Below are positions 27,745 through 32,454 of a stretch of 64,000 nucleotides of DNA, piece after piece (the stretch's first letter is position 1; the number at the start of each line of letters is the position of its first letter). The DNA comes from Escherichia coli. GTDB taxonomy: Bacteria > Pseudomonadota > Gammaproteobacteria > Enterobacterales > Enterobacteriaceae. The notes under the pieces were generated by a model, which saw nothing but the letters and a program-made list of their open reading frames with translations, did not search any database and was not told where the DNA came from. The position numbers were made by a program, and so were the translations under genes. The stretch is taken from assembly GCF_044647545.1 (NCBI RefSeq), contig NZ_CP172818.1. One strand, written 5' to 3'.

Positions 27745-29400
27745 ATGGATCGTAGACGATTTATTAAAGGTTCAATGGCTATGGCCGCCGTGTGCGGTAC
27801 CAGCGGCATTGCTTCTCTTTTTTCTCAGGCGGCATTCGCGGCAGATTCTGATATTGCCGACGGGCAAACCCAGCGTTTTGACTTCTCCATTCTACAGTCA
27901 ATGGCGCACGACTTAGCGCAAACCGCGTGGCGTGGTGCGCCGCGTCCGTTACCTGACACTCTGGCGACAATGACGCCGCAGGCTTATAACAGTATTCAAT
28001 ACGACGCCGAAAAATCGCTCTGGCATAACGTTGAGAACCGTCAACTGGACGCTCAGTTCTTCCATATGGGAATGGGATTCCGTCGCCGCGTTCGTATGTT
28101 TTCTGTTGATCCCGCAACACATCTGGCGCGTGAAATTCACTTTCGCCCGGAGTTGTTCAAATACAACGATGCGGGTGTTGATACCAAACAATTAGAAGGG
28201 CAAAGCGATCTCGGTTTTGCCGGTTTTCGCGTGTTTAAAGCCCCCGAACTGGCGCGCCGTGATGTCGTATCATTCCTCGGCGCGAGTTATTTCCGCGCCG
28301 TTGATGATACATATCAATACGGTTTGTCGGCCCGCGGCCTGGCGATCGACACTTACACCGACAGTAAAGAAGAGTTCCCCGACTTTACCGCCTTCTGGTT
28401 TGATACGGTAAAACCGGGGGCAACCACCTTTACCGTTTATGCGTTGCTCGATAGCGCCAGCATTACTGGTGCCTATAAGTTCACTATCCATTGCGAGAAA
28501 AGTCAGGTGATTATGGATGTGGAAAATCACCTGTATGCGCGCAAAGACATTAAACAGCTGGGCATTGCGCCGATGACCAGTATGTTCAGCTGCGGTACTA
28601 ATGAACGTCGGATGTGCGACACCATTCATCCGCAAATCCATGACTCTGATCGTTTGTCCATGTGGCGGGGCAACGGCGAGTGGATTTGTCGTCCGCTGAA
28701 CAATCCGCAAAAATTGCAGTTCAATGCTTACACCGACAACAACCCGAAAGGGTTTGGTTTATTGCAACTGGATCGTGATTTCTCCCATTATCAGGACATT
28801 ATGGGCTGGTATAACAAACGCCCAAGTCTGTGGGTGGAACCGCGTAACAAGTGGGGTAAGGGCACCATCGGCCTGATGGAAATCCCAACAACGGGCGAAA
28901 CGCTGGATAACATTGTCTGCTTCTGGCAGCCAGAAAAAGCTGTAAAAGCGGGTGATGAGTTTGCATTCCAGTATCGTCTGTACTGGAGTGCGCAACCGCC
29001 TGTTCATTGCCCATTAGCGCGCGTTATGGCGACGCGTACCGGCATGGGTGGTTTCCCGGAAGGTTGGGCTCCAGGTGAACACTATCCCGAAAAATGGGCG
29101 CGTCGTTTTGCCGTCGATTTAGTTGGTGGTGATCTGAAAGCTGCCGCGCCAAAAGGCATTGAGCCGGTGATTACGCTTTCCAGTGGGGAAGCGAAGCAAA
29201 TCGAAATTCTCTATATTGAACCCATTGATGGTTATCGTATTCAGTTTGACTGGTATCCGACTTCGGACTCCACTGATCCGGTCGATATGCGGATGTATCT
29301 GCGTTGTCAGGGCGACGCTATCAGTGAAACATGGCTGTATCAGTATTTCCCGCCAGCGCCCGATAAACGTCAGTATGTTGACGACCGCGTGATGAGTTAA
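27745..29400 (+). CDS. opgD: Osmoregulated periplasmic glucan biosynthesis protein D, Tat-exported
   Basis: 551-aa ORF with twin-arginine signal ([10 protein letters not shown]…AFA). Confidence 0.9.
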
Positions 29401-29539
29401 TCGTTTTTTCTTCGGCACCTTCTTCGGGAGGTGCCGTCTGGTTAAACACGATCCCGCTCGCATTTTTCCCTAAGTTAAATGAGTAATCTGATGGTGTGTA
29501 TTTCAGATACACCTAGTCAGCCACTAACAGGGAGTGCGT

Positions 29540-29764
29540 ATGTTTCCTGAATATCGAGATTTAATATCCCGTCTGAAAAACGAAAATCCTCGCTTTATGT
29601 CCTTGTTCGATAAACACAATAAACTTGATCATGAAATTGCCAGAAAGGAAGGTTCCGACGGTCGAGGGTACAATGCGGAAGTGGTCCGCATGAAAAAACA
29701 AAAGCTACAGTTAAAAGATGAGATGCTCAAAATCCTGCAGCAGGAGAGCGTCAAAGAGGTGTAA
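29540..29764 (+). CDS. ydcH: DUF465 family small protein
   Basis: 74 aa from the ATG at 29540 (MFPEYRDLISRLK…) behind a GGGAG site; the track ORF begins at an upstream GTG. Confidence 0.7.
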   Translation: MFPEYRDLISRLKNENPRFMSLFDKHNKLDHEIARKEGSDGRGYNAEVVRMKKQKLQLKDEMLKILQQESVKEV

Positions 29765-29772
29765 ACTTTCCT

Positions 29773-29797
29773 AAGCCGCCAGCCAGGCGGCTTTTTT
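29773..29797 (+). terminator. Rho-independent terminator after ydcH
   Basis: Stem AAGCCGCC / GGCGGCTT followed by T6. Confidence 0.65.
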
Positions 29798-29826
29798 AAC
29801 AACTGCATGGATTGACTGGAGATAAG

Positions 29827-30366
29827 ATGACCGAAACGATAAAAGTAAGTGAATCACTTGAATTACATGCTGTTGCAGAAAGTCATGTCACACCTCTTTA
29901 TCTGTTAATCTGTAAAAATAGAACCTGGCTACAGCAGTCGCTAAACTGGCCGCAGTTTGTTCAAAGTGAAGAGGACACGCGAAAAACGGTGCAGGGCAAT
30001 GTAATGTTGCATCAACGCGGATATGCCAAAATGTTCATGATTTTCAAAGAAGATGAACTTATCGGCGTTATCTCGTTTAATCGTATTGAACCACTGAATA
30101 AAACCGCTGAAATCGGCTACTGGCTGGACGAATCTCATCAGGGGCAGGGGATCATTTCTCAGGCGCTGCAGGCATTGATTCATCATTACGCTCAGTCTGG
30201 TGAACTTAGACGCTTCGTGATCAAATGTCGGGTGGACAATCCGCAAAGCAACCAGGTCGCTTTGCGCAATGGTTTTATCCTTGAAGGTTGCCTGAAACAG
30301 GCTGAGTTCCTGAATGATGCCTATGATGATGTGAACTTATACGCGCGTATTATCGATTCACAATAA
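29827..30366 (+). CDS. rimL: Ribosomal protein L7/L12 serine N-acetyltransferase (GNAT)
   Basis: 179 aa from the ATG at 29827 ([14 protein letters not shown]…); GNAT fold motifs. Confidence 0.8.
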
Positions 30367-31338
30367 CCCTGCCAGCGGCGTTCGAGTAATGCGCTCCTCG
30401 CCGTTAATGACTTTTGGACCACGGACATGAACCGTGTCGCCATCAAAGGCTTCAACGACGGCGTGGTCGGTTAACTCCACATGGTTTTCAATTATCACCG
30501 CACCTGTAATACGGCTCTCACCTTGTATGACAACGTGCTCGTCGAGCAGAATCGGTCCGCCACGTACCACGGCATTTCCGCCAATCAAGACATGATGTTT
30601 TAACACACAATTACCTTCCACAATGGCATATTCCGCCACCTGCGAACTGTAATGAATCGTCGGAATGGCATCTTCTTCTATGCCAGCTTTCACCTGCGCG
30701 TGACCGCAGACTTTAGCACAATCGCATAGCCAGACGTTGTTCTCCTCATTACCTTCAATACTGGCAAAATCAAAAACTTCGGCGCGATGTTCAATAAAAG
30801 CATACCGGACGACGGCATCGCCATAAATTTGTGCCTGGTGGACAATCCGCGAGGCGCTAACCCTCGCGCGATCATAAATTTGTAGCAGGAGTTGATGGTC
30901 GGGCGTTAAGCCTTGTGCGGCGACGATCATAGAATGTTGATCAATTAAGGCGTGACCAAATATTCTACATTGACCGCAAACTAATGAGCCACGAATGGTG
31001 ACACTGTCACTTATATGTGCACCCTGGCTGATTTCACTATTATCGATCCAGACGTTATCCGTTGCGTAAACCTCTCCCCACAGCACGCTGGTGCCGGTGA
31101 TACGCGTATTACCGGAAATCACCGTTCCGCCGAACGCAATAGCATTCTGGTCGTAAATCCAGCAATTTCCTTCCTGTGCTAACACCGTTTCGCGATCGAT
31201 CCAGCCGCCAGCGCTTCCTGCTATCACATCGTTAAAATCGCTAATGGCGATAATCTGCCGTAATAACACATTTTTTTTAGTGCCATCTTCCTGATAACTA
31301 AAGGCTCGCTGTTCTTCACTTAGACGATATTTGCGCAT
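30358..31338 (-). CDS. ydcK: Hexapeptide-repeat (left-handed beta-helix) acyltransferase-like protein
   Basis: 326-aa ORF with repeated hexapeptide motifs; its 3' end overlaps the rimL 3' end by 9 bp. Confidence 0.8.
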
Positions 31339-31461
31339 AGCGTTTTCCCACAGGTGACTTACTATAACCGTAGCAAATTCTGCGGCTCTGGCTATGCTCG
31401 AGAAAATTCCATAAAATGCATTTCAAATATACTTTATAAATTAAACAAAATGAGTAAGAAG

Positions 31462-32454
31462 ATGCAGAGCGATAAAGTGCTCAATTTGCCGGCAGGCTAC
31501 TTTAGTATTGTGTTGGGGACGATAGGGATGGGATTTGCCTGGCGCTATGCCAGCCAGGTTTGGCAGGTCAGCCACTGGTTGGGGGATGGGCTGGTGATTC
31601 TGGCGATGATCATCTGGGGATTATTGACTGGCGCATTTATTACCCGACTCATACGCTTTCCGCATAGCGTGCTGGCAGAAGTGCGCCATCCAGTGCTGAG
31701 CAGTTTTGTGAGTTTGTTTCCGGCAACGACGATGCTGGTGGCGATTGGTTTTGTTCCGTGGTTTCGCCCACTGGCGGTGTGCCTGTTCAGTTTTGGTGTC
31801 GTGGTTCAGTTGGCTTATGCCGCCTGGCAAACTGCGGGATTATGGCGCGGATCTCACCCTGAAGAAGCTACCACGCCTGGACTGTATCTGCCGACAGTTG
31901 CCAACAACTTTATCAGCGCAATGGCCTGTGGTGCGTTGGGCTACACCGACGCCGGTCTGGTGTTTTTAGGCGCAGGCGTTTTCTCATGGCTAAGCCTGGA
32001 ACCGGTGATCTTGCAGCGTCTGCGCAGTTCGGGAGAATTACCCACGGCGCTGCGGACATCACTCGGCATTCAGCTCGCTCCTGCGCTGGTGGCCTGTAGT
32101 GCCTGGCTGAGCGTCAACGGCGGCGAGGGTGACACGCTGGCGAAAATGCTTTTCGGTTATGGACTGCTGCAACTGCTGTTTATGCTACGTCTGATGCCAT
32201 GGTATCTCTCCCAGCCATTTAATGCTTCATTCTGGAGTTTCTCGTTCGGCGTATCTGCACTGGCAACCACCGGTTTGCATCTGGGGATTGGCAGCGATAA
32301 TGGATTTTTCCATACGCTGGCGGTGCCGCTGTTTATCTTTACCAATTTTATTATTGCAATACTGCTCATCCGTACTTTTGCGCTTCTGATGCAGGGAAAA
32401 TTGTTAATCAGAACCGAGCGCGCCGTTTTAATGAAAGCAGAGGACAAAGAATGA
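31462..32454 (+). CDS. tehA: Tellurite resistance / C4-dicarboxylate-type channel protein TehA
   Basis: 330 aa from [14 protein letters not shown]… (in-frame ATGs also at 31450 and further upstream); polytopic membrane protein; ATGA overlap with tehB. Confidence 0.85.

Follow-up and report, generated by a model that had tools for sequence, protein, structure and literature searches.

The 9-bp tail-to-tail overlap of rimL and ydcK in Escherichia coli: probably an ordinary convergent junction under coding constraint, with Rho-dependent termination past rimL

Genes and features of the rimL-ydcK locus

We analyzed the junction of the rimL and ydcK genes in a window of 64,000 nucleotides of Escherichia coli DNA (assembly GCF_044647545.1, contig NZ_CP172818.1). 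The junction belongs to the E. coli core region opgD-ydcH-rimL / ydcK / tehAB, and window positions were converted to coordinates of K-12 MG1655 with an offset of 1469111. The genes and their shared segment are as follows.

29540..29764, plus strand: ydcH coding sequence, upstream of rimL (mapped to K-12 1498651..1498875; NCBIfam NF008505, 170.6 bits)
29827..30366, plus strand: rimL coding sequence, 179 aa, L7/L12-serine acetyltransferase (ATG at 29827, stop codon TAA at 30364-30366)
30358..31338, minus strand: ydcK coding sequence, 326 aa, YdcK family protein, putative beta-helix
30358..30366, both strands: 9-bp tail-to-tail overlap, TCA CAA TAA on the plus strand and TTA TTG TGA on the minus strand, with codons in register

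The plus strand reads ...ATC GAT TCA CAA TAA CCC TGC... across the junction, and the ydcK stop codon TGA is the reverse complement of the TCA at 30358-30360. The original prediction that the two genes overlap by 9 bp at their 3' ends agrees exactly with the coordinates read from the sequence and with the RefSeq annotation of MG1655, in which rimL (1498938..1499477, plus strand) and ydcK (1499469..1500449, minus strand) form an identical overlap. The accompanying claim that each transcript must read into the coding region of the other gene also holds: with no intergenic space, each full-length mRNA carries sequence antisense to its partner, in agreement with the published ExcludonFinder list (PMC12288877). 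Transcript 3' ends mapping upstream of the overlap on both strands had been named as the observation that would overturn this claim. Since both stop codons lie inside the overlap, such ends would belong to non-stop mRNAs, and they are therefore impossible for functional mRNAs.

RimL was confirmed as the ribosomal protein L7/L12-serine acetyltransferase, as first proposed, by a full-length match (residues 1-179 of 179) to the NCBIfam equivalog NF007539 at 366.6 bits (cutoff 184), and it is ~75% alike to the crystallised Salmonella enzyme (1S7F/1Z9U). YdcK matches NF040481 over residues 1-326 of 326 (554 bits, cutoff 350). Structures of its close homologue have been solved in Salmonella (2F9C/2PIG), with PDB entries titled "hypothetical protein" and "putative transferase", and the PGAP product name is only "YdcK family protein". 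Among the Pfam families, YdcK scores 39.4 versus 30 for B_solenoid_ydck, 25.1 versus 23.3 for Hexapep_GlmU, the latter without an individually significant stretch, and 44.9 for LbH_EIF2B, below the cutoff of 54; similarity to LpxD is weak (E ~1e-4). As the beta-helix and hexapeptide matches are marginal and a literature search found 13 papers that name ydcK, all on other subjects than its function, the name hexapeptide-repeat acyltransferase, given to this protein in the original prediction, is an annotation-level, putative label for what is itself a putative left-handed beta-helix protein.

Distribution and types of the junction

The junction is nearly invariant within the species. An 81-nt junction probe was colinear and matched end to end in 5412 of 5426 complete E. 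coli genomes, hence no junction indels occur among those 5412 genomes. A scan of species-representative genomes for YdcK yielded 39 loci, in 37 of which rimL lies tail to tail with ydcK. We classified these 37 species by the spacing of the two stop codons.

31 of 37 species: 9-bp in-register overlap (Escherichia, Citrobacter species, Superficieibacter electus, Pluralibacter, Yokenella, Trabulsiella and others)
1 of 37 species: 4-bp TTAA overlap (Enterobacteriaceae bacterium RIT693)
3 of 37 species: abutting stop codons, 0 bp (Cedecea and Dryocola)
1 of 37 species: 3-bp gap (Superficieibacter sp. 1612_C1)
1 of 37 species: 22-bp gap (a Buttiauxella metagenome-assembled genome, MAG)

The 9-bp overlap persists down to 54% YdcK identity. 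Salmonella enterica, which was fetched separately and is not counted among the 37 species, has a 4-bp TTAA shared-stop overlap (locus L042, 3478-3481), so that synteny of rimL and ydcK with a spacing of at most 22 bp extends over 37 species plus Salmonella. In none of the lineages examined is there room for an intergenic terminator between the two genes, and the pair thus apparently lacks one across a whole bacterial family. The occurrence of 9-bp, 4-bp, 0-bp and gapped junctions in different lineages points to drift by small steps and shows that the junction is not fixed at 9 bp. As judged by these sequence comparisons, the overlap is evolutionarily old and not a strain-level accident.

Several rearrangements and irregular records were observed around the locus. 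In a Pluralibacter MAG (locus L040, 3979-3991), rimL is replaced by hrpA, which is convergent to ydcK and 9 bp away from it; this fits either a loss of the hrpA..rimL block or a chimeric assembly. In S. enterica (L042, 4234-5981), a peptidase M42 gene and PTS genes are located upstream of rimL, where they replace ydcH and opgD. E. coli IMT16316 (NZ_CP023815.1), which is 100% identical to the window over this region, carries an IS1 element at the 5' end of ydcK (L002, 4623-5320). The element, absent from the window, makes the gene shorter in the annotation of that strain. Shortened YdcK proteins of 242-320 aa are also found in many E. coli and Shigella sonnei entries (P0080-P0101), those of S. 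sonnei being annotated as partial, an indication that some lineages can dispense with ydcK or are losing it. Five matches to the chromosomal rimL-ydcK locus in the E. coli collection sit on plasmid-classed records. Finally, two records carry non-enterobacterial labels that are likely due to mislabelling or contamination. One, labelled Chryseobacterium sp. 18061 (L024, CACSKA010000006.1), contains an enterobacterial ydcK-rimL pair and is near-identical to a "Citrobacter sp. 18056" contig of the same project; the other, a 237-bp contig of very low coverage labelled Alkalicoccobacillus porphyridii (L041), is a 97% match to a fragment of E. coli ydcK.

Coding constraint on the two C-termini

The two proteins differ in how their C-termini are conserved. 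The YdcK C-terminus consists of TRTP followed by five residues and the stop codon, and its length is invariant in 37 of 37 species and in Salmonella. The tail of RimL after the motif YARI[IV][DE] is variable and comprises 0 to 4 residues. Wherever the overlap measures 9 bp, in 31 species, the second-to-last codon of YdcK is TTA, CTA or TCA, which are the complements of the rimL stop codons TAA, TAG and TGA. The second-to-last codon of RimL is TCA, or TTA in the two species whose ydcK stop is TAA, and thus tracks the alternation of TGA and TAA. The last sense codons of the two genes are exact complements of each other (GAG/CTC, GAA/TTC, CAA/TTG, CAG/CTG, AAG/CTT and ACG/CGT). In lineages without the 9-bp overlap, the equivalent position of YdcK is occupied by Val.

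These patterns are consistent with a simple history, in which the short and poorly conserved tail of RimL would run to the first in-frame stop codon, supplied by the reverse complement of the second-to-last codon of YdcK. Loss of this stop in E. coli, as read from the sequence, would make RimL ~35 residues longer. The overlap would then persist through purifying selection on both protein ends at a junction without spare bases. We attribute its conservation to this coding constraint on both ends: the overlap is a dual-coding region, and selection for regulation is unnecessary to explain it.

Transcription past the rimL stop codon

The search for terminators covered both strands near the junction by a consensus scan, RNA folding, a looser custom scan and inspection by eye, and it returned no canonical intrinsic terminator. 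The looser scan was designed because the consensus promoter/terminator scan has false negatives, having missed the clear terminator of the upstream gene ydcH, which the looser scan recovers at 29773-29797. Global folding of the two 3' regions was unremarkable (z -0.14 and -1.24), and an Rfam scan of 29400-31500 gave a single match at chance level (E 0.72). The features on the rimL strand are as follows.

29773..29797, plus strand: intrinsic terminator between ydcH and rimL, AAGCCGCC-AGCCA-GGCGGCUU followed by six U, ending 30 nt before the rimL ATG
30367..30654, plus strand: untranslated RNA downstream of rimL, antisense to ydcK, C>G-rich, containing the published Rho region with its peak at ~30476
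30374..30405, plus strand: stem-loop 8 nt past the rimL stop codon, within the 3' UTR, an imperfect palindrome antisense to ydcK codons

The ydcH hairpin has a folding energy of -14.6 kcal/mol (z -3.85), and the consensus scan misses it because its stem absorbs two U residues. Adams et al. 2021 (PMC7815308) report a 3' end from Term-seq at 1498877, which corresponds to window position 29766, upstream of this hairpin. Given a terminator 30 nt ahead of its start codon, rimL would be expressed by readthrough or from a promoter that overlaps the terminator.

The original statement that the junction has no terminator stands for the intergenic, intrinsic type and fails for the Rho-dependent type, a region of which has been published within ydcK. 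In the data of Adams et al. 2021 (supplementary file 2 of PMC7815308), Rho-dependent termination is called at 1499587 on the plus strand, antisense to ydcK, with a Rho score of 4.31 and p 1.5e-8. The 3'-end reads upstream and downstream of this point number 82 and 20 without bicyclomycin, and 137 and 144 with it. The region maps to window position ~30476, ~110 nt past the rimL stop, a coarse location since the method uses 800-nt windows. The composition of the RNA is that expected before a Rho termination zone (untranslated, C-rich and G-poor): every 78-nt window between +1 and +398 past the rimL stop has a C/G ratio of 1.0 to 2.6, with the maximum of 2.6 at +191..+268. Rho would load on the untranslated, C-rich RNA behind the rimL stop and terminate transcription roughly 100 nt or more into ydcK. 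In the Term-seq tables of the same study (PMC7815308) there is no 3' end in rimL, ydcK, opgD or tehAB, and the SMRT-Cappable-seq tables mention neither rimL nor ydcK.

The stem-loop after the rimL stop

The stem-loop at 30374-30405 folds with -14.2 kcal/mol (z -2.0), or -15.2 kcal/mol in the MG1655 version. Its tail is UAAUGACUUUU, with no adjacent U tract, and it thus does not qualify as an intrinsic terminator. The hairpin recurs in many species, and several genera have a far more stable version of it (-28 to -31 kcal/mol per 75 nt). When ydcK codons were resampled synonymously, the mean z of the hairpin was -0.84, the most negative among 18 ydcK windows (p ~0.06). Stability above the synonymous expectation could hint at selection.

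The candidate function that fits these data is that of a rimL 3'-end element, either a protective stem-loop that remains after Rho termination or a bidirectional site that positions the collision of RNA polymerases. As a hairpin blocking exonucleases, it may mark the stable 3' end of rimL mRNA once Rho has acted, a step that we infer. Its placement directly after the stop codon, without a U tract and with C-rich RNA downstream, follows the published pattern of Rho-dependent transcripts (PMC6061677), and programmed collision termination requires a stem-loop. However, covariation is absent from the hairpin (82.7% of alignment cells are paired versus 82.4% in shuffles, with 178 of 500 shuffles as high), and pairs at wobble positions fail to form in 12-15 of the 37 sequences. 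The YdcK protein sequence by itself accounts for most of the pairing, as conserved N-G and T-P-L residues dictate the arms and simulated sequences already reach ~-12 kcal/mol. The first rank among 18 windows is of borderline significance at the p value given above, the Term-seq tables place no 3' end at the stem-loop, and the collision mechanism demands dense polymerase traffic. We therefore regard a functional 3'-end element as a tentative proposal, somewhat doubtful on balance, which complements the preferred explanation of the junction by coding constraint and Rho termination and does not exclude it.

The 3' side of ydcK and structures inside rimL

On the opposite strand, a single candidate terminator was found downstream of ydcK, well inside rimL.

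29913..29962, minus strand: terminator-like hairpin followed by UAUUUUUA, candidate, 437 nt downstream of the ydcK stop and antisense of a rimL motif

This hairpin has a folding energy of -15.7 kcal/mol (z -1.2) and is present at the homologous position in ~17 species. Synonymous resampling gave it a mean z of -0.40, within the background of -0.52 to +0.58, and its strength is ascribed to the conserved RimL motif to which it is antisense. The 3' end of ydcK mRNA would likely be formed by Rho or at this hairpin with its U run.

Two further symmetric sequences lie in the 3' part of rimL. The inverted repeat CGCAAAGC-n9-GCTTTGCG (30242-30266) was considered as a ydcK 3' element and rejected: its arms are broken outside the closest relatives of E. 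coli, in all other Escherichia species as well as in other genera. A perfect 12-bp palindrome, ATACGCGCGTAT, occupies 30339-30350, a short way upstream of the overlap, in the rimL codons for L-Y-A-R-I; conservation of the YAR motif probably produces it incidentally.

Interpretation of the junction

We interpret the junction as an ordinary overlap, present in the existing annotation, at which two unrelated E. coli core genes meet tail to tail. It is constrained by coding, with termination by Rho past rimL, and we assign this reading a probability of roughly 0.8. Regulatory coupling of rimL and ydcK is unnecessary to explain anything seen here. The scope for antisense interference, which the original prediction had drawn from the overlap, is a possibility only, and any effect is probably small. 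A small effect is expected because the rimL strand has few reads (82 in 800 nt, in one dataset, PMC7815308) and no functional link between the two genes is known.

An alternative is that the arrangement without a spacer is kept by selection as an excludon, in which polymerase collision or RNase III would bring about mutual repression and mutually exclusive expression of the two genes. The pair is indeed present in a published list of 165 convergent excludons (PMC12288877), excludon pairs as a class show higher synteny, and the near-zero spacing found in every lineage, in 37 species and Salmonella, is also what a selected antisense arrangement would give. Moreover, a ydcK transcript reaching the hairpin at 29913-29962 would be antisense to ~80% of rimL. 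However, overlapping coding sequences satisfy the ExcludonFinder definition trivially once both genes are expressed, and coding constraint fully explains the conservation. The length of the overlap varies among lineages (9, 4, 0, -3 and -22 bp), and the embedded hairpins have neither covariation nor stability in excess of the background, save for one weak signal. RimL and YdcK have no known functional link, collisions should be rare given the low number of rimL-strand reads, and validation by p19 capture of double-stranded RNA is not feasible for convergent pairs according to the authors of the list (PMC12288877). On this evidence a selected excludon is improbable.

Slightly less probable still is the specific case of a selected antisense switch, with ydcK transcripts running ~440 nt through rimL to 29913-29962 and induction of ydcK lowering RimL. 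If true, it would change the L7/L12 acetylation ratio in the ribosome stalk and make the palindrome at 30374-30405 a shared boundary element of the two genes. Should antisense coupling be demonstrated, it would connect a putative beta-helix protein, as yet uncharacterised, with the acetylation of ribosomal protein L12.

An annotation artefact, in which one gene end is mis-called and no true overlap exists, was considered since gene callers sometimes produce short overlaps, found no support and is ruled out because a 3' overlap depends on stop codons alone, which are unambiguous; both proteins also fit their family profiles to the last residue, crystallised orthologues of equal length exist for both, and the stop positions are kept across genera.

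The coding-constrained, Rho-terminated junction that we favor has little significance in itself, such arrangements being common in E. coli, and the overlap, the transcript overlap and the Rho region are already known from the reference annotation and published genome-wide tables.

Comparison with known systems

Bidirectional intrinsic terminators and the programmed collision of polymerases between convergent genes (Wang et al. 2022, bioRxiv 10.1101/2022.10.23.513370) resemble the rimL-ydcK junction in having a palindromic stem-loop at the boundary of a convergent pair. In contrast to them, the stem-loop of rimL/ydcK has no U and A tracts on its flanks, is embedded in the coding sequence of ydcK and is found in genes of low expression.

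The likeness to excludons (PMC12288877) consists in the necessary overlap of the rimL and ydcK transcripts and in the presence of the pair in the published list, where ExcludonFinder reports it among the 165 convergent overlapping pairs, in half or more of 58 MG1655 RNA-seq samples. The definition of an excludon needs reciprocal expression, through interference or RNase III cleavage, whereas rimL-ydcK is alike by transcript overlap alone. Such overlap is widespread: Conway et al. 2014 (PMC4161252) found overlapping transcripts for 276 of the 370 convergent operons of E. coli, with a mean overlap of 286 nt. Convergent transcript overlap is thus the norm in E. coli.

Rho-dependent termination at 3' ends and in antisense transcripts (PMC7815308, PMC6061677) shares with rimL the bicyclomycin-sensitive readthrough ~110 nt past the stop codon and the C>G-rich RNA, and the Rho-dependent transcripts described by Dar and Sorek 2018 (PMC6061677) share with it the stem-loop without a U tract just after the stop. 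The difference is that the rimL data are coarse and come from the plus strand only.

Convergent overlapping gene pairs show no essential difference from rimL/ydcK. Huvet and Stumpf 2014 (PMC4161906) counted 75 convergent overlaps of coding sequences in E. coli, and a 9-bp tail-to-tail overlap is statistically unremarkable. As in the pairs described there, rimL and ydcK are genuine genes on opposite strands that share 3' bases, keep the arrangement in orthologous pairs of related genomes and owe its origin to the movement of a stop codon. The details peculiar to rimL/ydcK are the in-register phase and the restriction of the YdcK codon to TTA, CTA or TCA. The pair thereby offers a worked example of how a stop codon in one gene restricts a residue of the opposite gene to Leu or Ser; when one stop codon is exchanged for another in the first gene, the second gene shows a Leu/Ser exchange.
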